From positions 8,080 through 72,079 of the IMG/VR virus record IMGVR_UViG_3300025154_000076: a stretch of 64,000 nt of DNA. The stretch is one strand, 5' to 3'. Under the pieces are notes generated by a model. That model did not search any database. It was not told where the DNA came from and worked only from the letters and a program-made list of their open reading frames with translations. Source of the stretch: a virus. The translations under genes were made by a program, and so were the position numbers. Of the stretch, positions 1 through 64,000 are shown in pieces (position 1 is the stretch's first letter; each line of letters starts with the position of its first letter).

Positions 1-366
1 CCAAGCACTACTATAAATAGTTTTGATTTCTTTTCCGTTTTTAACATAATACATCAACTCAAAATCATCTGTAATCTTATGACCCAATATTCTGCCACTA
101 CTTATTTTTTCTGTAACATACAAACGTTGTGATCTTGCTTCTCCTATTGATCTTAATGTAATTAACGGTTTTTTCTCCGCATTTACAAAGGTTCCTTCCA
201 TTAAGATAGTTCCTAATAAATGATTTTTAATAAAAAACTTAAAATTATTATTAGTTTCTTTTAAAATATTAAACCGAGAACCTAAATCTTGTATGTATTC
301 GTTTAAATTTACAACTTCTCTTTCAAGTTTTTCTATACTAACTCTTAGTTTTCTTTTTGTTTCCAT
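1..366 (-). CDS. hypothetical protein (runs off the window edge)
   Basis: ATG at 366 opens a frame (METKRKLRVSIEKLERE...) that continues to base 1; not in the ORF track. Confidence 0.6.
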   Translation of the reverse strand, partial: METKRKLRVSIEKLEREVVNLNEYIQDLGSRFNILKETNNNFKFFIKNHLLGTILMEGTFVNAEKKPLITLRSIGEARSQRLYVTEKISSGRILGHKITDDFELMYYVKNGKEIKTIYSSAW

Positions 367-409
367 GATTATTGTTTTTAAATTATTATTTTATTGAACC
401 CCTTATTCC

Positions 410-1282
410 TTAAAATGGCAAATCATCTGATTCTTCCGGCATATTAGGTCTTTCTTTTTTTTGTTCAGCAGATGGCTTTTTATCAAACTCACCTGAACTC
501 AATGATTCAGCATATAAAGGATTATTCTTTTCAAAATCTTTCACCTTTTCATCCACCTCATTTTGTTTTTCATTGATAATTTGTTCTTCTGTAACCCCTG
601 TATTGTTCATATAGTTTTTCCATGCCAAGAACATATCAATGTATTCTTCCACCTTAAATTGCTCTACCACCTGATCAGTAATTTCTTTTCCTGCATCAAT
701 ATAAGCATAGGCAAGAGGTGATCTGGCTATTTTTAATGCCTTATGAACCCTGTCTGAAAACCTGTTGTCGGTTTTATCATAAACCTCTGGATTAATAAGA
801 ATCATTTTATCCAACCAAACTTCATCTTTTATCCTTTTTGACTGATCTATGTCAGTTGCAAGAATTGTGGTAATTGACATTAACCCGGCTTTTGTTGCTA
901 CCCACAACACCCTTTTCATAGATGGTTTTTTATCAATTTCCTGTACCATATGAGCAACCACCTGATCGCAATCTCCAAGAATCTCTATTTTACCTGAAGG
1001 GCTAAACATAGCTATCTTGTTCTGCTTATTAAGAAATTGAGTGGAATAATATGACCCACCATTTGTTCCATGATTATTGTCAAAGCATGTTAATTGCAAT
1101 GTTCTCCCGATAAGAACACCTTCAATTGTCTTTTGAAAGTTTACCGTTTTTTCTCCATCGTAATATGTGAATATTGCAACATTGTCTTTGTATTTTACAT
1201 CCACACGATAATCAGGGGTTAATTTTGGATAATTTTCACCACCATGTTGACTATCTTTTAATTTTTCTTTCCATGTACTCAT
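410..1282 (-). CDS. putative ssDNA-binding/recombination protein
   Basis: 290 aa with acidic SSB-like C-terminal tail ESDDLPF; next to resolvase. Confidence 0.45.
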   Translation of the reverse strand: MSTWKEKLKDSQHGGENYPKLTPDYRVDVKYKDNVAIFTYYDGEKTVNFQKTIEGVLIGRTLQLTCFDNNHGTNGGSYYSTQFLNKQNKIAMFSPSGKIEILGDCDQVVAHMVQEIDKKPSMKRVLWVATKAGLMSITTILATDIDQSKRIKDEVWLDKMILINPEVYDKTDNRFSDRVHKALKIARSPLAYAYIDAGKEITDQVVEQFKVEEYIDMFLAWKNYMNNTGVTEEQIINEKQNEVDEKVKDFEKNNPLYAESLSSGEFDKKPSAEQKKERPNMPEESDDLPF

Positions 1283-1339
1283 TATTTTTAAGTTTTAAAT
1301 TGTTTATATAATTGAAAATTTATTTTGTAACCCTTTATT

Positions 1340-49903: not shown

Positions 49904-50278
49904 ATGATAAATTTTTTACTACATAAAGAAAACGCTAAATTCCTAAAGTTCCTGTATGATTGTCCAAAGGATAAATGGTTAACAATAAATAAGGGGTCAT
50001 ACAAACAATGGGATGAAATAATTGTTAAGATAATGAATAATGGGTTCTTTAGATTTGAGTGGATTTTTAATTTATCCCCGGAGCAGATGGTGATGATTGC
50101 AAAATTCTTCGAGATACCCCTTCCTGAATGGCATAAGGCAATACATAATGGGAAAATACATAAAGACAAGATGTTTGATGATGACAAAAAAAGACACCTG
50201 TATTTAACTATCAAAAAATTCATCTTTAAATTTTCTAAGGATAATACACAATTTATAAAAGAATCAGTTAAATTTTAA
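49904..50278 (+). CDS. hypothetical protein
   Basis: 124-aa ORF in co-oriented run. Confidence 0.6.
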   Translation: MINFLLHKENAKFLKFLYDCPKDKWLTINKGSYKQWDEIIVKIMNNGFFRFEWIFNLSPEQMVMIAKFFEIPLPEWHKAIHNGKIHKDKMFDDDKKRHLYLTIKKFIFKFSKDNTQFIKESVKF

Positions 50279-51052: not shown

Positions 51053-52171
51053 CTAATGGCTTACGTTAGCGTACAAAGGGTTGTCCCTAACCCCAAAATT
51101 CTTTATATTATATGCAGCATTCAAATCCCTATCTATTGAATTATTACACTTATCACAATTGTAAGTTCTATCTGAAAGTTTTAAATCTTTCTTGTGATTT
51201 CCACAATTAGAACATACTTTACTGCTTGGTTCAAATCTGCCAATTACAACAAGATTTTTACCTTGCCATTCAGTTTTATATTCAAGCATTGTTCTTAATT
51301 GTCGCCAACCCATTTCAGATATGGCTTTAGCTAAATTATGGTTCTTAACCATATTACTAACTGCTAAATCTTCTAATACAATTGTGTTATACGTGTTTAC
51401 TAATTCAGTAGATATTTTATGCAAGTAATCAGTCCTTTGGTTACGGATTTTTTCTTGCAATAATGCTACTTTTAATTTTTGTTTTTCTCTATTTATTGAA
51501 CCTTTCTGTTTTCTTGCAAAGCTTCTCTGTTCAACTCTTAATCTTCTTTGTTGCGATTTGAAAAAGTTTTTATTTTCATACACCACACCATCAGAAGTAA
51601 TTGCTAAATCTTTAATCCCAAAATCAATACCAACAGATGTTTCGGATTTAATTGGTTTTTGCTTTGGTTTTTCTATTTGTGTATCAACCAATATTGATAC
51701 AAAGTATTTACCAGTAACAGTTTTGCTTAATGTAACTCTTTTTGGTAATCCTTTGAACAATCTATGATAATCAATAGCAACCTCTTTTAATTTAGGTAAT
51801 TTTAAAATGTTGTTATCAAAATCAACCTCAAAACCTTGTGGAAATGTAACTGACTGCTTAGAGTATCTATTCTTGTATTTAGGAAACTGACCTTTGCCTT
51901 TAAAAAAGTTTTGATATGCTGTATCTAAATTGATAATACTATGTTGTAGTATTTGACTTGGACATTCTTTAATGTAATCAAATTCCTTTCTTAATTCTGG
52001 AAGTTGTTTAATTAAATCATATTTAGATATTGATGTTTTATTTGAAGCATACGCAACAGTCTTGGTCTCTAAACCAAGATTATATACCAATCTATTTACA
52101 CCAAAATACCTTTGTAATTGGTTTTTTTGGTCATCCGTTGGGAATATTCTGTATTTGTATCCTTTAAGCAT
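51053..52171 (-). CDS. tnpB: TnpB RNA-guided endonuclease
   Basis: GYKYRIFPT HTH; RuvC GIDFG / VLEDL / DRDLNAA; CSNC...CDKC Zn finger. Confidence 0.95.
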   Translation of the reverse strand: MLKGYKYRIFPTDDQKNQLQRYFGVNRLVYNLGLETKTVAYASNKTSISKYDLIKQLPELRKEFDYIKECPSQILQHSIINLDTAYQNFFKGKGQFPKYKNRYSKQSVTFPQGFEVDFDNNILKLPKLKEVAIDYHRLFKGLPKRVTLSKTVTGKYFVSILVDTQIEKPKQKPIKSETSVGIDFGIKDLAITSDGVVYENKNFFKSQQRRLRVEQRSFARKQKGSINREKQKLKVALLQEKIRNQRTDYLHKISTELVNTYNTIVLEDLAVSNMVKNHNLAKAISEMGWRQLRTMLEYKTEWQGKNLVVIGRFEPSSKVCSNCGNHKKDLKLSDRTYNCDKCNNSIDRDLNAAYNIKNFGVRDNPLYANVSH

Positions 52172-52317
52172 ATATTATTAAATAGTCTAAACTTTTGTAA
52201 AAGTACAACATTTTTATCTAAATTACAAGTTTTGGTTAAATTTATTTTATTTGATACCGTATTTTGTTTAAATCATTCCGTCTTTGGTTGTAAATAATTT
52301 AAACAAAATACTACATT

Positions 52318-52722
52318 ATGCAATCAAATTACATTTCTACAAATCATTCAAAACACTATTTAAAATGTCATCTAATTCTCGTTACTAAGTATCGTAAAAA
52401 TATGTTAGTTGGTCAATTAAATGATGATTTAAAAGATATATTCAGTTCCATAGCAGATAACTCAGATTTTGAAATAGAAGTTATGGAGTCTGATGTAAAC
52501 CATATTCATTTCTTAATTAGGTACATACCTCGCCTATCTATATCCCAAATGGTTCGTAGGCTTAAACAAGAATCTACTCGTCAGTTATGGTTATTGCATC
52601 ATACTACTTTACGTCAGTATTATTGGTATCGTAAAATACTTTGGAGTGATGGGTTCTTCGTTTGTTCAATAGGTGAAGCAAGTCCAGATACTATCCGTCA
52701 ATATATTTTAAGCCAAGGTTAA
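52318..52722 (+). CDS. tnpA: IS200-type Y1 HUH transposase
   Basis: HLILVTKYR, HIH, LKQES, LWSDGFF, IRQYILSQ. Confidence 0.95.
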   Translation: MQSNYISTNHSKHYLKCHLILVTKYRKNMLVGQLNDDLKDIFSSIADNSDFEIEVMESDVNHIHFLIRYIPRLSISQMVRRLKQESTRQLWLLHHTTLRQYYWYRKILWSDGFFVCSIGEASPDTIRQYILSQG

Positions 52723-53331: not shown

Positions 53332-53865
53332 TTAATTCCCGATCGGCGCATACATTTTGTATCTTATCGTGTAACCATTAATCATATTTCCTTTTTTTAT
53401 GGCCCGATATACCTTCATCCTACTTACCCCAAAGTGCTTCAATAGGTCATTTATACTACTAAAATAAAGGGTTTCAGAAGAATTAAAGGCTTCCATCTTT
53501 CGCATTGTACCCTTATCATTAACCAAAGCAGCTATATCTTCAGGCATCTTCAGATCATAAAAGGTTTTTTCATCAATAGTGTTGAATTTACAAAATGTCT
53601 TTTTTACATATTCAAGGTTTTCAACGCAATTATTCATCCTATTGCAATCTATATGACTTATAGCATACCCATCAGGCATTGGTTCCAGAAAGTGAGAAGA
53701 AACCAAAACATGGGCATAATAATGGGTTCCTTCTATAAAATACCTAACATAACTATACCTCCCCACAATAATGGGTTTCAAATATCTCTTTAATACATAA
53801 GAATAAACCAACCCCATATCTGTTATTCCATATCTATTACCCATTCCTATCATATACACTATCAT
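53332..53865 (-). CDS. HNH (HNH_3/NUMOD4-like) homing endonuclease-like protein
   Basis: YGITDMGLV, HVLVSSHFL, ISHIDCNRMNNCVENLEY; NUMOD1-like C-terminus. Confidence 0.75.
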   Translation of the reverse strand: MIVYMIGMGNRYGITDMGLVYSYVLKRYLKPIIVGRYSYVRYFIEGTHYYAHVLVSSHFLEPMPDGYAISHIDCNRMNNCVENLEYVKKTFCKFNTIDEKTFYDLKMPEDIAALVNDKGTMRKMEAFNSSETLYFSSINDLLKHFGVSRMKVYRAIKKGNMINGYTIRYKMYAPIGN

Positions 53866-56085: not shown

Positions 56086-56541
56086 ATGAAAACCTACAAG
56101 TCTTATATTAAAGAATATAATCTAAAAGTTGAAGAGCGAAACACAACCTTTGAAAAGGTAAAGATCACAACTGTCATTGATGCAGCTAACTATATAAGAA
56201 AGCATTTATATAGTGACGATTTAATTATTTACGAATTATTCTTTATGTTATTGCTAAACCGGGGAAATAATGTAATCGGATTTGTAAAAATAAGTCAGGG
56301 AGGCTTAAGTGGAACGGTAACAGATGTACGAATGATTTGTAAATATGCTATTGATACACTGGCAACAGCTGTAATTATAGCACACAACCACCCATCCGGG
56401 AATGAACAACCAAGCACCCATGACATATCAATGACTACTAAAATACAACAGGCATTAAAATTATTTGATGTGACATTATTAGATCATGTCATTATTACTG
56501 AAAATAATCACTATTCACTTTCTGACAATGGTATTTTTTAA
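56086..56541 (+). CDS. RadC-like JAB/MPN domain protein
   Basis: ELFFMLLLNRGN, ISQGGLSGT, IAHNHPSG..PS.HD, LLDHVII. Confidence 0.92.
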   Translation: MKTYKSYIKEYNLKVEERNTTFEKVKITTVIDAANYIRKHLYSDDLIIYELFFMLLLNRGNNVIGFVKISQGGLSGTVTDVRMICKYAIDTLATAVIIAHNHPSGNEQPSTHDISMTTKIQQALKLFDVTLLDHVIITENNHYSLSDNGIF

Positions 56542-57117: not shown

Positions 57118-57387
57118 ATGAAAACAAAAGCAGAATTAACCGGTAGAAAAAAAATTGTAAAATTGGTAACTGGATTGAATTATTATTCAACTAAACAAAC
57201 AATACCGGTATTAGGGAAACTCCCTTCTAAAAAAATAAATAAAGGTTCTGATCATTCAGATTGGGGAATAGATTTAGGACTTAGAAAAGCAACAATAACT
57301 GAAATAACAGTTGATAAATTTGATCCACAAAATTATTGTTCAATTATAGTTGATGGAGCTGTTTTACTAAAAGAAATTGATTATTAA
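57118..57387 (+). CDS. hypothetical protein
   Basis: 89-aa ORF. Confidence 0.6.
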   Translation: MKTKAELTGRKKIVKLVTGLNYYSTKQTIPVLGKLPSKKINKGSDHSDWGIDLGLRKATITEITVDKFDPQNYCSIIVDGAVLLKEIDY

Positions 57388-58698: not shown

Positions 58699-59337
58699 AT
58701 GAAAAAAGTAAAAGGTTATAAAGCTTATAATAAAGGCTTAGTTTGTAAAGATTTTCAATTTGAAGAAAATAAAACATTTACAATTGAAGGAGAACCCATT
58801 ATTTGTCAGAAAGGGTTCCATTTTTACGAAAATCCTCTTGATACACTTAATTATTATGATTTGTGCGAAAGTGAATTTACCACCGTAGAAGCAATAGGAA
58901 ATGTAACTCATAATGAAGATACCAAAATAGCAACAAATAAAATTAAAATAGGTAAAAAGCTAAGTTTACATGAATTTATAAATGCAAGTATAGCTTATTT
59001 AATAGAACAAAATAAAATTGAAGCTGCATCGGGAAATTATAGTAAACTGGCTGCATCGGGAGATTATAGTAAACTGGCTGCATCGGGAGATTATAGTCAA
59101 CTGGCTGCATCGGGAGATTTTAGTAAACTTGAATTAAACGGTAACAAATCGGTAGGTGCAAACATTGGAATAAATGGAACAATAAAGGGAGTTAAGGGTT
59201 CATGGATAACCTTAGCAGAATATAATTCTAATTACGAATGTATATGTATAAAATCTGCAATTATTGATGGTATAGAATTAAAAGAAAATACCTGGTATAA
59301 ATTAAAAAAAGGATTATTCACTGAAACAAACAATTAA
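58699..59337 (+). CDS. conserved phage protein with 9-aa AASGDYSKL repeats
   Basis: GYKAYNKGLVC.DFQF...C..GFHF.ENPLD N-terminus; LKENTWY C-terminus. Confidence 0.8.
   Translation: MKKVKGYKAYNKGLVCKDFQFEENKTFTIEGEPIICQKGFHFYENPLDTLNYYDLCESEFTTVEAIGNVTHNEDTKIATNKIKIGKKLSLHEFINASIAYLIEQNKIEAASGNYSKLAASGDYSKLAASGDYSQLAASGDFSKLELNGNKSVGANIGINGTIKGVKGSWITLAEYNSNYECICIKSAIIDGIELKENTWYKLKKGLFTETNN
59023..59129. repeat. 27-bp tandem repeat x4
   Basis: GCTGCATCGGGAGATTATAGTAAACTG units. Confidence 0.9.
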
Positions 59338-59731: not shown

Positions 59732-59917
59732 GTGGAAACAGTAAATAGTACAACAAAGAAAATAGATAAAAAAAATGCTAAGATATTTGTTTTGTTAATT
59801 TTTATTTTTGGTTTAGTTGCTTTCTTTAGCTATTTGATTGAAAATTATGAACCCATTATTTCGGATAAACCCGAACCCATTCTTGAAGGATGGGAGGAAA
59901 TAAAAATTGTTGACTAA
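59732..59917 (+). CDS. small membrane protein
   Basis: TM segment; stop codon overlaps site S1 core. Confidence 0.45.
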   Translation: METVNSTTKKIDKKNAKIFVLLIFIFGLVAFFSYLIENYEPIISDKPEPILEGWEEIKIVD

Positions 59918-60040
59918 CGGTGGTGGTATGGTTAGTTGCCGATTGCGGACGACACACTATCCATCGACACAGAATTACAAGCGGGTGGTAACGCTTAAAA
60001 TTAGTACTAATACGGCAATTAACTATACCACGGGTTAGCT
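59912..60040 (+). repeat. attC-like hairpin site S1
   Basis: GACTAAC...GTGGTATGGTTAGTTGCCG / CGGCAATTAACTATACCAC...GTTAGCT. Confidence 0.8.
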
Positions 60041-60062
60041 GCTGGGCTTTATTAAAATCAAA

Positions 60063-60308
60063 ATGAACTTATACGAAATAGAAGGAAAACTAAGAGACAA
60101 AGCAGACAAATGGGAATTGCATAATGTCCAAAATGAAAATCGGGAATTGAAAAGCAAAATACACGAACTGGAAAGGAGGATAGGCAATTTAGAAGGAGTA
60201 AATAGCAATAAGAATTATTTGCTTGAAAGGCTTTTAAACTTGCTTGCAGAAAACGTTTCCCTAAATGAAATATCAAATGAACTTTACGAGCTTCGGGGCA
60301 GTCTTTAG
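60063..60308 (+). CDS. coiled-coil hypothetical protein (cassette)
   Basis: 81 aa between S1 and S2. Confidence 0.7.
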   Translation: MNLYEIEGKLRDKADKWELHNVQNENRELKSKIHELERRIGNLEGVNSNKNYLLERLLNLLAENVSLNEISNELYELRGSL

Positions 60309-60314
60309 CCTTGC

Positions 60315-60521
60315 AGCTAACGACTACGGCTATGCACATGTAATTTTAACGACTTAAAAACGAGGAATAATGACACAAGAAGAATTTAACAAAGCACCGT
60401 TATTAAACCAAATACTGTACGATGAAACAGGTATGTTGGTAGAGAACCACCCAAGTATTGCCGAAGCTATGGAGAAATACCACCAAGCTAAGTTAAAATT
60501 ATTGGGTATAGCCGATGTATC
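60315..60521 (+). repeat. attC-like site S2 (degenerate right core)
   Basis: AGCTAAC-GACTA-CGGCTATGC ... GTATAGCCG-AT-GTATC. Confidence 0.55.
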
Positions 60522-60702
60522 TGTAAAAATTACGGATATGATACACATAATTAACTTTGTAGTAAAATCATTGGCAACAGTAATATTATTTTTTCCAATT
60601 GGTGGATGTTTGACATTACTATCAATAGTATTTTGGGATGCAAAGTATCTCGAAGTTGGGAATGATATATTGGAAAAAATGATATGGAAGAAAAGGCAGT
60701 AA
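60370..60702 (+). CDS. hypothetical membrane protein starting inside the S2 loop
   Basis: LGIADVS is encoded by the S2 right arm; TM segment. Confidence 0.6.
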   Translation: MTQEEFNKAPLLNQILYDETGMLVENHPSIAEAMEKYHQAKLKLLGIADVSVKITDMIHIINFVVKSLATVILFFPIGGCLTLLSIVFWDAKYLEVGNDILEKMIWKKRQ

Positions 60703-60712
60703 TTTTCACTGT

Positions 60713-61091
60713 GCCTAACGTGACGCAAGTATGAGTAGTGCGACTTTGGAACACGAAACTTTGAATTAATAAAAGAACTAATAACAAATATTTTATGGCT
60801 TGGAAAACCGACAAACTTCCTTTAGAATACCTACAGCAAAGAGTAAGGTATTATGAAAAGGCAATCAAGAAAACAAAAAAATTAAAAGAAACGGGTTTGA
60901 TTGTTGGCGATATAGAATACACAGACGAAGATTTTGAGAGGTCTATAAAAAATTGTGAATACCTTTTGAATGAATTTAAAAAAGCAAGCTATCTAATTGC
61001 TGAAAATATGGAATAAAATATTTGTTATGGCATTTGGAACACTAAACTCGATTTTAAGCACAGCAGTAAGCATTACTTATACTTGTTAGTT
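60713..61091 (+). repeat. attC-like site S3 with an ORF inside its loop
   Basis: GCCTAAC...CAAGTATGAGTAGTGC / GCATTACTTATACTTG-TTAGTT. Confidence 0.75.
60795..61016 (+). CDS. hypothetical protein nested in the S3 loop
   Basis: 73-aa ORF with AT-rich leader. Confidence 0.6.
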   Translation: MAWKTDKLPLEYLQQRVRYYEKAIKKTKKLKETGLIVGDIEYTDEDFERSIKNCEYLLNEFKKASYLIAENME

Positions 61092-61113
61092 GCAGTACTT
61101 TATTTAAAATTAA

Positions 61114-61845
61114 TTGATTATGAAATATATGGGAAGCAAGGCGAGATTTACAAAAGAGATTTTGCCGATTATTTTAAAAGATAGAACAAACGAGCAGTGG
61201 TACATTGAGCCGTTTGCTGGAGGTATGAACGCAATTTGTGAGGTTGGGGGCAAACGAATAGCAAACGATATTCATTACCATTTAATTCAAATGTGGAAAG
61301 AACTTGTTAGCGGTTGGATTCCAAAAAAGATTACCAAAGAAGAATATTTAGAAGTAAGAACAGACCAGAGCAAATACCCTGCATATTTTGTTGGGTGGGT
61401 TGGTTTTAACTGCTCTTATTCGGGCAAATGGTTTGGTGGATTTGCTGACGACTACCCTGAAAGTAGAAGAAATAAAAATGGAATTTTACCAAATTACCAA
61501 ATGGAAGCAATAAACAACGTCCCTAAACAGGTTGAAAAAATGAAAGGTGTAATATTTCAAAATAAACCATACTATAAATTGGATTTGCCACCAAACAGTA
61601 TTATTTATTGTGACCCACCATATAAAGGCACAACTAAATATGCTAATAACTTTAACCATATCATTTTTTGGAATTGGGTAAGAAATATAAGCAAACAAGG
61701 ACACACTGTATTTGTGAGTGAATACAATGCACCTTCCGATTTTAAATGTGTTTGGGAAAAAGAAACAAATAGTCAACTATCAGCAAACGGCAAAATTGGA
61801 GGCAACAAAGTATCAACGGAGCGTCTTTTCTTGTATTGCAACTAA
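61114..61845 (+). CDS. DNA adenine methyltransferase (Dam/D12 class)
   Basis: MKYMGSK, YIEPFAGG, IYCDPPY, FVSEY. Confidence 0.92.
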   Translation: MIMKYMGSKARFTKEILPIILKDRTNEQWYIEPFAGGMNAICEVGGKRIANDIHYHLIQMWKELVSGWIPKKITKEEYLEVRTDQSKYPAYFVGWVGFNCSYSGKWFGGFADDYPESRRNKNGILPNYQMEAINNVPKQVEKMKGVIFQNKPYYKLDLPPNSIIYCDPPYKGTTKYANNFNHIIFWNWVRNISKQGHTVFVSEYNAPSDFKCVWEKETNSQLSANGKIGGNKVSTERLFLYCN

Positions 61846-61893
61846 CGGACGGGTATAAACCATCGTTTTAATGTGGTTTATACCTTGTCAGCA
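61840..61893 (+). repeat. attC-like site S4
   Basis: AACTAAC-GGAC-GGGTATAAACCA / TGGTTTATACCT-T-GTCAGCA. Confidence 0.75.
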
Positions 61894-61932
61894 ACTGGCA
61901 CGGTTAAATTAGTAAAAACTTAAATTAAAGTT

Positions 61933-62583
61933 ATGAATTTATTAGAATTATTTGCAGGATCGAGAAGCGTGGGAAAAGCAGGTGAACAATTAGGAATGAA
62001 TGTTTTTTCAGTCGATTGGGAACAATACGAAAATATAAACCTTTCAATTGATATTGGAGAATTAACAAAAGAAAATGTACCTTTTATTCCCGATGTAGTT
62101 TGGGCTTCACCTGATTGCACTACTTACACAATTGCTGCAATAAGCACACACAGAAATAAAACAGAACCAAAAAGCGATTATGCTAAAAAATGCGATACCG
62201 TAAACCAACACTTTATTGGATTAATTAAAGAATGGTTGGTTATAAATCCAAATATGGTATTTTTTATTGAAAATCCAAGAGGTATGATGAGGCATATGGA
62301 ATGGATGCAAGAATTTAAACGACATACTGTTTGGTATTGCCAATATGGAGATGATAAGGCAAAGCCAACAGATATTTGGACTAATTCAAAAACTTGGATA
62401 CCACGACCAGAATGCCACAATTACAAGTATGATAAACAAGGTAATGTAATTAATAAACATTGCCACCACGAAAGTGCAAGGCGTGGAGCAAAAACAGGAA
62501 CACAAGGCAGAAACGGACATTATGAACGATCAAAGATTCCACACGAACTTTGCAATGAGGTACTTCGTAGTGCTTGTTGCTAA
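61933..62583 (+). CDS. short C5-cytosine DNA methyltransferase-like protein
   Basis: LLELFAGS (motif I), WASPDC (IV), IENP (VI), YCQYG..KPTDIW. Confidence 0.8.
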   Translation: MNLLELFAGSRSVGKAGEQLGMNVFSVDWEQYENINLSIDIGELTKENVPFIPDVVWASPDCTTYTIAAISTHRNKTEPKSDYAKKCDTVNQHFIGLIKEWLVINPNMVFFIENPRGMMRHMEWMQEFKRHTVWYCQYGDDKAKPTDIWTNSKTWIPRPECHNYKYDKQGNVINKHCHHESARRGAKTGTQGRNGHYERSKIPHELCNEVLRSACC

Positions 62584-62706
62584 CGTTGAAGCTATGACCA
62601 GTAAAGGATTACGGAGCGATGAATTATCAAAATACACCGAACTGGATGTGAGCTACAACGTTGGATTACCCACTAAAACCTTTATTGGTTATAGCTTGTG
62701 TTAGCA
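62578..62706 (+). repeat. attC-like site S5
   Basis: TGCTAAC...AAGCTATGACCAGTAAAGG / CCTTTATTGGTTATAGCTT...GTTAGCA. Confidence 0.8.
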
Positions 62707-62746
62707 AATCGGCTTTTATTATTAATTAATTTAAAATCAAATAAAT

Positions 62747-63130
62747 ATGAGAGAATTAAATTTTAAAGCATGGGATAAGTCTCAAAGATATATGGCTTAT
62801 CAAGGAAATCCAGATTTAGAAACACTATCGAGTTTTATGTTTCATTTTGGGGATGACATTGTAATGCAATCAACTGGGTTTAAAGACAAAAATGACCGTG
62901 AAATTTTTGAAGGTGATATATTGAGCGATTGGAATGATGTTGATGGAAAACAAGTTCAGTCTTTTATACAAGTTTTTTGGTGCAATCAGTCGGGAGCATG
63001 GAAATTAGACAACTCATTTAAAAATGATATGTCAAGTGGCGATTTGTTAAGTGATGAATTGTCTGATTTTGCTTATGAAATCACTGGCAACATATATGAA
63101 TCGCCTGAATTGTTGCAGCGGTCTGTTTAA
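62747..63130 (+). CDS. YopX-family protein
   Basis: MRELNFKAWD...MQSTGFKDKNDREIFEGDI...EITGNIYESPELL. Confidence 0.9.
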   Translation: MRELNFKAWDKSQRYMAYQGNPDLETLSSFMFHFGDDIVMQSTGFKDKNDREIFEGDILSDWNDVDGKQVQSFIQVFWCNQSGAWKLDNSFKNDMSSGDLLSDELSDFAYEITGNIYESPELLQRSV

Positions 63131-63136
63131 GCTGTT

Positions 63137-63207
63137 TGCTAACGAACGGTGGTATGGTGCGGCTTGTGTTGCGCCTTCGGCAAGCTGCATTATACCACAT
63201 GTTAGGC
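63137..63207 (+). repeat. attC-like site S6
   Basis: TGCTAAC...GTGGTATGGTGCGGCTTG / CAAGCTGCATTATACCAC...GTTAGGC. Confidence 0.8.
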
Positions 63208-63243
63208 ACAGCACTTATTTTTTAATCTAAAATTAATCGAAAT

Positions 63244-63864
63244 ATGAGAATATTATTAGCGTGTGAAGAAAGCCAAACCGTAACAATTGAAATGCGAAAA
63301 CTAGGACACGAAGCATTTAGTTGTGATTTATTAGAGTGCTCAGGTGGACACCCCGAATGGCACTTACAACAAGATGTAACAGAACTATTAAAACAGCACT
63401 GGGATTTAATTATTGCTTTTCTACCTTGTACATTTTTAACAGTTACCGGGAATAGATGGTTTAATATTGAAAGATATGGTGAAAAAGCAATCCAACGCCA
63501 CAAAGACCGTGAATTTGCAATTAAGTTTTTCAAAATGTTTGCTGAGTCTAATTGCGAAAGAGTTGCAATTGAAAATCCAGTAGGCATAATGAGTAGTGAA
63601 TGGCGAAAACCCGACCAAATTATCAATCCTTTTCAGTTCGGTGATGCGTTTGAAAAAAAGACTTGTTTATGGCTAAAAGGTCTTCCGAAATTAGAACCTA
63701 CAAACATAGTTGAGCCACCTAAACGAACGGAGTTTGCAAGTGGTAAAAGTATGCCAACTTGGTACGCAGATGCTTGGAGACTTCCAAAAGAGGAAAGAGC
63801 AAAATTAAGGTCAAAAACATTTGAGGGGATTGCGAAGGCTATGGCGATGCAGTGGGCTTCCTAG
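63244..63864 (+). CDS. short C5-cytosine DNA methyltransferase-like protein
   Basis: LLACEES, IAFLPCT, IENP, PFQFGD..KKTCLWL, RSKTFEGIAKAMAMQW. Confidence 0.8.
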   Translation: MRILLACEESQTVTIEMRKLGHEAFSCDLLECSGGHPEWHLQQDVTELLKQHWDLIIAFLPCTFLTVTGNRWFNIERYGEKAIQRHKDREFAIKFFKMFAESNCERVAIENPVGIMSSEWRKPDQIINPFQFGDAFEKKTCLWLKGLPKLEPTNIVEPPKRTEFASGKSMPTWYADAWRLPKEERAKLRSKTFEGIAKAMAMQWAS

Positions 63865-63870
63865 TATTGT

Positions 63871-63966
63871 GCCTAACGTTTTGCGTATAAGAGATGTGGC
63901 ACTTATACGAATGTTTAAATCAAGGCACAAAGCCCAATGTGCCATATCTTTTATACGCTGTTATGT
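63871..63966 (+). repeat. attC-like site S7
   Basis: GCCTAAC...GCGTATAAGAGATGTGGCAC / GTGCCATATCTTTTATACGC-T-GTTATGT. Confidence 0.8.
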
Positions 63967-64000
63967 GCTGGGCGGTTTATCAGCACTAAATTTAATTTAA

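Follow-up and report, generated by a model that had tools for sequence, protein, structure and literature searches.

A probable integron-like cassette array in a phage genome, with hairpin sites that belong to the genes downstream of them

Integrons are known as systems of gene capture in bacteria, in which promoterless genes are followed by attC sites. The Xer-family tyrosine recombinases XerCD act on a one-strand hairpin of CTX-type phages by a single-strand exchange, and replication resolves the junction; in that case a whole phage genome enters the chromosomal dif site, and cassettes are not shuffled within an array. Insertion sequences (IS) of the IS200/IS605 family act on one folded strand and insert 3' of a short target. 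The intergenic promoter–stem-loop (PeSL) modules of T4-type phages, which lie upstream of small accessory genes in a plastic region, recombine by sequence homology. Clusters of attC sites lacking integron integrases (CALINs) have been reported from virulent phages, including Polaribacter phage P12002L with two methyltransferases, and according to the available part of that report the integrase IntI1 recombined one of the P12002L sites (Qi 2023, PMC9892861). Here we describe a cassette array in the IMG/VR virus record IMGVR_UViG_3300025154_000076, a single contig of 72,079 nucleotides (nt) with a G+C content of 28–38%, of which bases 8080–72079 (64,000 nt) are hereafter called the window. The array runs over both contig ends, and its larger part occupies positions 59915–63963 of the window. 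Since the replicon carries seven or more sites and no integrase, the array is CALIN-like; different from integrons, the host replicon is a virulent-type phage. We conclude that this phage of about 72 kb probably carries an integron-like array of about nine cassettes, in which exchange takes place at the TAAC of the left core, the hairpin belongs to the downstream gene and the recombinase acts in trans. The hairpin logic of integrons would then be used in reverse in a virus.

The position of the crossover was obtained from two alleles. The first 119 nt of the contig, reaching from the 3' end of a gene designated X to ...TGTGCCTAACG, are repeated at contig positions 71839–71957, and the two copies part directly after TAACG. 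The last 122 nt, comprising the hairpin S7, recur at contig positions 1329–1450. Because of these repeats at the contig ends, the assembly holds two alleles. In the empty allele, gene X is followed by TAACG and the S7 body, and in the filled allele by TAACG, the hairpin S8, a gene for a C5 DNA methyltransferase of 329 amino acids (aa) that ends in ...TATAACG, and then the S7 body. The 1,209-nt unit formed by S8 and the methyltransferase gene has TAACG at each boundary, and since the bodies of S7 and S8 are unrelated, the exchange lies inside the left core. An initial annotation, made from the sequence alone, had placed the crossover there and had suggested the comparison of empty and filled alleles that now locates it. 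An independent assembly (Logan contigs) of the public runs X1 and X2, which may be the source samples, contains a bubble with both alleles. The filled path is a contig of 1,264 nt with a depth of 25.3 and 23.6 in X1 and X2, respectively, and the empty path is a contig of 55 nt (depth 27 and 17.2) that joins position 114 to 1324, thus skipping 1,209 nt, with 5 letters fitting both sides; the shared flanks have a depth of 45–51. Both alleles occur at similar depth and represent a live polymorphism in the population. The only other joint in the Logan contigs is an 86-nt skip in run X7; no conclusion was drawn from runs X5 and X7, whose contigs match only minor portions of the sequence, and the shares of the other matching runs were small.

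Further breakpoints come from two related loci (L006 and L012) with flanks that are 99.8–100% identical, which differ by one cassette replacement (389 versus 925 nt) and one cassette insertion. All four breakpoints are at TAAC, and the natural breakpoints mapped so far lie, in six of six cases, in the TAAC core adjoining the upstream gene. Gene-bearing blocks of at least 250 nt shared among 91 loci gave a similar picture: 22 of 68 block starts were within 25 nt of a left core and 4 within that distance of a right core, with corresponding values of 18 and 4 for 60 block ends, and the remaining ends lay elsewhere. This analysis replaced a breakpoint histogram with blocks of at least 80 nt, which was uninformative because most short shared blocks are homologous hairpins themselves. 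From crossovers at left cores it follows that each hairpin moves with its downstream gene, as had been proposed from the sequence, and the gene-bearing blocks are indeed bounded by left rather than right cores. This differs from integrons, where the site lies 3' of the open reading frame (ORF) of its own cassette; here the crossover falls in the core that directly follows the upstream gene.

The abundance of shared hairpins, with families such as that of S7 being about 95% identical across contigs, could also suggest homologous or microhomology recombination between repeated intergenic modules, as proposed for PeSL. However, the hairpin bodies on either side of the polymorphic unit, S7 and S8, are unrelated, the joint has only the 5 nt TAACG in common, and the breakpoints fall at one fixed position instead of being spread along repeats. 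Different from PeSL, the bodies vary between sites and the exchange occurs at a fixed 4-nt core, and we consider recombination by homology very unlikely.

For a wider comparison, 379 non-redundant sites were collected from related arrays with a scan that required TAAC and GTTA and had a background of 6.6 hits per shuffled 72-kb genome, counted on both strands. The 4 nt after the GTTA of a site were fully complementary to the 4 nt before the TAAC of the next site in 245 of 323 non-redundant consecutive pairs, compared with 14 for the site's own left flank and 12.7 for shuffled controls. In the array studied here, the complementarity holds for S1 with S2, S3 with S4, S4 with S5, S5 with S6, S6 with gene X, S8 with the end of its methyltransferase cassette, and S7 with S9. 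This is the relation expected if the unit closes into a circle with a complete hairpin site, and in integrons the half-cores at the two cassette ends are likewise complementary. In the related arrays, a sense ORF fills at least 60% of the segment in 199 of 289 inter-site segments, and an antisense ORF in 4. Insertion behind a TAA stop, which had been predicted as well, holds for the TAA of the core, but this TAA is the upstream ORF's own stop codon in only 63 of 330 segments.

Seven attC-like sites lie in the window, on the plus strand (Table 1). The motif CTAACG occurs 12 times in the window, seven of these on the plus strand between positions 59914 and 63873, with 7.3 occurrences expected for the whole window and both strands. 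Upstream of the array, back to position 50001, no further ATTG-N4-TAAC core was found save one within a coding region; a scanner hit at position 57296 was a false positive inside coding sequence. Of the seven sites, five are complete hairpins; S3 has distant arms, and S2 is a half-site, with no partner arm within 1.2 kb. The complete sites share a common plan of TAAC, a 4–5-nt spacer starting with G, a long stem whose two arms enclose a variable tip, 1–2 nt and GTTA (GTCA in S4). As in the attC sites of class 1 and Vibrio integrons, these are imperfect folded hairpins with conserved AAC and GTT triplets, in which an unpaired spacer separates the R stem from the L stem and the tip is variable. 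The unpaired spacer is asymmetric, with 4–5 nt on the left arm versus 1–2 nt on the right arm in the window, and no bulged bases were found in the long stems of the six sites traced; both features agree with the initial annotation. Canonical attC sites have extrahelical bases in the L stem, and their unpaired central spacer measures about 5–6 nt on each arm in the data available from Nivina 2016 (PMC5027507), whereas in the wider set the arm with AAC has 4–6 nt and the other arm 1–2 nt (left: 5 nt in 254 sites, 4 in 74 and 6 in 37; right: 1 nt in 178 and 2 in 177). The flank consensus of the 379 sites is ATTG-N4-TAAC-G (G in 94%) on the left and T-GTTA (T in 97%) on the right. Stem position 2 forms a Watson–Crick pair in 360 of the 379 sites, with G, C, A and T as the left base in 114, 131, 105 and 29 sites, respectively. 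Pairing is therefore kept while the sequence changes, as in integrons, and the stem structure is under selection.

The strand preference of these hairpins is that of the gene-sense strand. In the long continuous stems of the window (S1 and S4–S7), G·T pairs on the plus strand are the sole type of mismatch, with 2–4 per site and no A·C pairs. In the complete hairpins they are found at positions 8 and 13 of the stem, where the 5' arm contributes the G, and such fixed positions are a further difference from integrons. The earlier statement that all stem mismatches are G·T on the top strand is thus correct for the complete hairpins; the one mismatch counted for S2 was not reproduced, and 'all' does not extend to the 379 sites, whose stems contain 5813 Watson–Crick, 615 G·T, 126 A·C and 167 other pairs. 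The G is on the 5' arm in 533 of the 615 G·T pairs, and the number of G·T pairs per site is 1.62 versus 0.33, in favour of the sense strand. This bias is strong, not absolute. Comparison of folding energies, also proposed initially, gave a more stable plus strand at six of six window sites with DNA parameters (plus/minus: −21.7/−17.1, −10.9/−10.2, −20.2/−16.3, −20.1/−14.8, −17.7/−15.4 and −15.0/−13.1), and RNA parameters gave the same preference. In the wider set, the sense strand was the more stable one in 360 of 379 sites, by a mean of 2.84 kcal/mol, and GC skew was positive, i.e. the sense strand was G-rich, in 298 of 379. A strand bias is therefore present in the larger set as well. For 263 canonical attC sites, Nivina 2016 (PMC5027507) found that the recombined bottom strand carries more G:T pairs per site (1.24 versus 0.39), is the more stable one by 2.12 kcal/mol and is enriched in purines. 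By this yardstick, the favoured strand of the present sites appears to be the gene-sense strand, which supports the initial proposal that the sense strand is the folded substrate. An excess of G:T pairs and guanine on the favoured strand is thus shared with integrons, but there the bias favours the antisense strand, while here the genes are on the favoured, and presumably recombined, strand.

The same hairpins could instead function mainly as RNA, for instance in processing, in stabilisation or as terminators that insulate genes with separate transcription, with shuffling as a by-product of conserved ends. Their position on the sense strand between co-oriented genes, G·U pairs at fixed stem positions, an AT-rich leader behind each site, and RNA folding parameters that favour the plus strand by up to 21.6 kcal/mol at the window sites would all suit such a function. 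It leaves unexplained, however, why the right flank of a site is complementary to the left flank of the site that follows (245/323), why breakpoints lie exactly at TAAC, and why the arrays are associated with the tyrosine recombinase and the attI-like site described below. Moreover, no Rfam family matched the sites, and a terminator scan, limited to loops of 3–8 nt, called no main stem; its sole hit within a site was an inner 6-bp hairpin in the tip of S7. We therefore regard a primary role as RNA as improbable; an additional role of this kind is conceivable.

Tyrosine recombinases of 265 and 266 aa are encoded in two of five other array-bearing records. Their scores are below every curated NCBIfam cut-off (for TIGR02249, 169.7 vs 265), the nearest models being XerA, IntI and XerC/D. 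The enzyme of one large contig (G003) aligns with VchIntIA in two pieces, with 37 residues opposite 85, and about 48 residues are absent. In the two enzymes examined, the missing part is the IntI-specific segment, which in IntI reads the extrahelical bases of attC. The expectation of a distinct recombinase class is borne out only in part: the enzyme belongs to the Xer/IntI superfamily of tyrosine recombinases and is not encoded in this phage. The G003 enzyme was used to fetch 80 viral loci with a homologue, many of them from contigs of 100–360 kb. Within 517 kb upstream of the recombinase, 419 sites were found on its strand, compared with 17 downstream on the same strand; the two classes of the opposite strand had 25 and 14. 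Of the 80 loci, 68 contain one or more of these upstream sites, and the 12 others have less than 1.3 kb of upstream sequence. A motif, TAAC|TATNATATATA, is present in 45 of 53 unique upstream sequences, 49–97 nt before the recombinase gene; the array ends there with ATTG-N4-TAAC followed by TAT(N)ATATATA in place of a hairpin. The motif is at an attI-like position, and we infer that it may function as attI. With the sites upstream on the recombinase strand and the attI-like motif between, the order seen from the recombinase is integrase, attI-like site and array, as in integrons, and the array genes point towards the integrase. In three loci (L041, L050 and L056), the unit beside the attI-like site, directly upstream of the recombinase, is a gene-less mini-cassette with about 25–50 nt from the right core to the next left core.

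In bacterial genomes, the best match to the recombinase was 72% identical (on a 2-kb contig of a metagenome-assembled genome, MAG) and the rest at most 53%, and the scan gave 71 hits in 812 kb on both strands, which is background level save for a few loci. On two Nitrospirae MAG contigs (L103 and L112), relatives of the short recombinase with 47–49% identity are followed by arrays of 57-nt hairpins with the same spacer geometry. These hairpins are on the strand opposite to the genes, i.e. in canonical polarity, which suggests that the flip is specific to phage arrays. A Bacteroidales MAG contig of 109 kb (L107) carries six sense-oriented sites upstream of a 53%-identical recombinase in a phage-like arrangement, and may be a prophage or a mis-binned phage contig.

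A different driver could be the phage's own Y1 (HUH) transposase of the IS200/IS605 type, which would move the units as single-stranded DNA by cutting after TAAC, as IS608 does after TTAC. Its genes TnpA and TnpB are about 7 kb from the array (Table 1), and the family shares strand specificity, hairpin recognition and insertion 3' of a short motif with the system studied here. However, its transposase domain PF01797 is absent in six of six other array-bearing records, the stem sequences are not conserved between sites, and the arrays co-localise with the tyrosine recombinase. The two-box stem and the circle logic are those of tyrosine-recombinase sites and are not found in IS ends. For lack of co-occurrence with the arrays, TnpA was rejected as the driver, and movement by this transposase seems highly improbable. 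A serine recombinase was also considered as the driver, and none was found in the genome.

The array might also be an ordinary CALIN, with canonical attC sites recombined on the antisense strand by an integron integrase of the host and a right-core crossover at G|TT. The sites do have AAC/GTT cores and stems arranged as R and L, and by its spacer geometry the antisense strand resembles an IntI substrate. P12002L contains two sites of exactly the present form, in gene sense, with a methyltransferase gene and a Mom-like gene downstream of them and a TGGGTAAC core at the end; like the phage described here, it has methyltransferase cargo and no integrase. Its sites were called attC, and IntI1 recombined one of them at G|TTRRRY, as far as the available text reports (Qi 2023, PMC9892861). 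In that part of the paper the sites are treated as ordinary attC, IntI1 is the enzyme tested and 'divergent directions' are noted only; cassette polarity, left-core crossovers, fixed G·T pairs and a dedicated recombinase with an attI-like site are not mentioned in it. An ordinary CALIN does not account for six of six natural breakpoints at the left core or for gene-bearing blocks that begin and finish at left cores; the canonical crossover at G|TT of the distal (R') core was not encountered here. The biases in G·T pairs and folding energy point to the sense strand, and the linked recombinase is devoid of the IntI-specific segment. We therefore consider an ordinary CALIN unlikely. In the literature searched, attC-like sites that are flipped or lie on the sense strand are not described, nor is a phage recombinase associated with arrays of this kind; the nearest report is that of Qi 2023.

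Under the interpretation that we favour, exchange at the left core by a recombinase acting in trans, a site begins with ATTG-N4-TAAC-G and a 4–6-nt spacer, continues with a stem of about 19 bp that folds back after a variable tip, and ends with a 1–2-nt spacer and T-GTTA-N4. The mobile unit extends from the hairpin body and the right core through a promoter-like AT-rich leader and the gene to N4-TAAC. Strand exchange lies inside the TAAC of the left core, directly behind the preceding gene. The gene-sense strand would fold as single-stranded DNA, and a short tyrosine recombinase of the Xer/IntI type would cut it at TAA|C; that this strand folds as DNA and is the one cut is what we infer from the data at hand. 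The recombinase would be supplied by a co-infecting phage or by the host. As in integrons, a single strand would change partners, and replication would resolve the junction.

Several observations weigh against this mechanism. No tyrosine recombinase (no match to PF00589) or serine recombinase was found in this genome, the complete array-bearing relatives G001 and G002 are likewise without a tyrosine recombinase, and action in trans is assumed for this reason. An attI-like site is also absent from the genome, where the best score was 16.7 against a training minimum of 28.2. A back-going joint, as a circle junction would give, is not reported among the contigs of the runs, though contigs cannot show absence. 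The IntI1 junction in P12002L was at G|TT on what the authors call the 'bottom strand', in a site that is probably of the present type, to judge from the available text (Qi 2023, PMC9892861). In the crossover-bearing strand, the additional unpaired bases are found on the arm with AAC, and IntI substrates carry extrahelical bases on the arm opposite AAC, as stated in the accessible part of PMC5027507. The bias in G·T pairs is equally compatible with an RNA hairpin.

The coupling of hairpins to genes raises a further difficulty, which the S7 family illustrates. A 20-nt piece of the S7 stem is present in 10 IMG/VR contigs, a copy of S7 is also found in LR745206.1, and S7-type sites occur inside the recombinase-linked arrays of G003 and G004. 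Similarity begins directly after TAACG in 13 contexts, with a mean identity of 32% over the 50 nt upstream versus 83% in the body. Beyond the right core the module remains about 95% conserved (window 63964–64000, contig 1410–1457; L002 and L005–L014) and comprises a second small hairpin GTGCTGGGCGGTTTATCAGCAC and an AT-rich stretch, as far as the start codon. The genes behind it differ in nearly every contig, so that conservation extends to the start codon of unrelated genes. The same hairpin body can also have different right extensions: both sides vary in 25 of 38 body clusters, while the left varies with a constant right side in 11 and the reverse is found in 1, a test that is weakly discriminating. 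Of 608 pairs that have a body in common, 105 also share the right extension and 28 the left one. Given the varied right flanks per body and the conservation of S7 up to the start codon, left-core exchange alone is insufficient, and a further process must couple hairpins to genes. The S7 module, which precedes different genes in 12 contexts, makes it testable how one hairpin type attaches to many unrelated genes.

Whether the arrays form a separate family of phage-borne integrons is, in our judgement, evenly balanced. Such a family would have a short Xer/IntI-like integrase without the IntI domain, TAAC|TATNATATATA as its attI-like site, and sense-strand hairpins in which fixed G·T pairs replace extrahelical bases. 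Arrays of about 20 cassettes are present in the two large contigs examined, G003 and G004, and on the same even footing their cassettes would be self-expressed; integrase-less arrays of smaller phages, among them the present one, would be fed in trans, and phages would trade anti-defence genes. If true, phages own a cassette-exchange system for anti-restriction and other accessory genes, and many of the 'CALINs' reported in phage genomes would be explained. Nature would also have solved the problem of strand selection at folded DNA sites in a second way, and the sites could be useful as structure-specific recombination tools with a small recombinase.

Table 1. Features of the array and its surroundings (window positions unless stated otherwise)
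Feature	Position	Strand	Remarks
TnpB gene	51053–52171	−	372 aa; OrfB_IS605, Cas12f1-like TNB domains; IS605-type element spans 51053–52722
TnpA gene	52318–52722		134 aa; Y1 transposase, divergent from TnpB; PF01797 4.9e-32, IS200 equivalog 4.1e-35
HNH endonuclease gene	53332–53865	−	
RadC-like JAB-domain gene	56086–56541		
DUF7666 gene	58699–59337		27-nt unit at 58996–59129
Backbone ORF	59732–59917	+	61 aa; TAA stop inside first left core CTAACG; array start
S1, complete hairpin	59915–60037	+	TAAC, 4-nt left spacer, 19-bp stem with 2 G·T, ~80-nt terminal structure, 2-nt right spacer, GTTA
Cassette 1 gene	60063–60308	+	81 aa, no family; cassette end GCAGCTAAC complements right extension of S1
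S2, half-site	60318–60345	+	left core and left arm alone
Cassette 2 gene	60370–60702	+	110 aa, no family
S3, hairpin with distant arms	60716–61088	+	TAAC at 60716, right core GTTA at 61085; arms 60727–60741 and 61070–61084; ORF 60795–61016; repeats TTTGGAACAC at 60745–60754 and 61033–61042
Cassette 3 gene	61120–61845	+	D12-class N6-adenine DNA methyltransferase; PF02086 1.2e-15, phrog_56 1.3e-40; TAA stop in S4 core
S4, short complete hairpin	61843–61890	+	2 G·T; right core GTCA, not GTTA; 84% identical copy in LR745206.1
Cassette 4 gene	61933–62583	+	DNA methyltransferase family; phrog_757 2.2e-26; TAA stop in S5 core
S5, complete hairpin	62581–62703	+	2 G·T
Cassette 5 gene	62747–63130	+	YopX-family protein; PF09643 2.7e-17
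S6, complete hairpin	63140–63204	+	3–4 G·T
Cassette 6 gene (gene X)	63244–63864	+	DNA methyltransferase family; phrog_757 4.6e-66
S7, complete hairpin	63874–63963	+	2 G·T; left core TAACG at 63874–63878 is the mapped crossover
S8 cassette (filled allele)	contig 120–1328		1,209 nt; S8 hairpin and 329-aa C5 DNA methyltransferase

DNA methyltransferases account for four of 10 cassette ORFs and YopX-like proteins for one of 10, and the cargo of the array is largely anti-restriction. The AT-rich leaders that follow each site and precede the gene look promoter-like in sequence, a difference from the promoterless cassettes of integrons. The nearest named relatives of the cassette genes occur in phages of marine bacteria, including Cellulophaga and Polaribacter. 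Homologous methyltransferase genes lie in tightly packed contexts in the Cellulophaga phages phi46:3 and phi18:1; an initial scan with less strict settings detected no array of this kind there, its hits being a single one in L001 and a palindromic one in L003.

The arms of S3 are paired in 15 of 15 positions, with two G·T pairs five bp apart, and are separated by 0.35 kb. The terminal part of 0.33 kb contains an ORF of 73 aa between the TTTGGAACAC repeats, and the segment of about 290 nt bounded by this direct repeat looks like an insertion into the hairpin tip.

Large genes are carried by the minus strand up to about 44 kb of the window, and small plus-strand genes lie beyond. A further CTAACG, in the sense orientation of tnpB, lies at the 3' end of that gene (position 51069). 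Just before the array lie the genes for the HNH endonuclease and the RadC-like JAB-domain protein, and the DUF7666 gene contains a 27-nt unit in four tandem copies.

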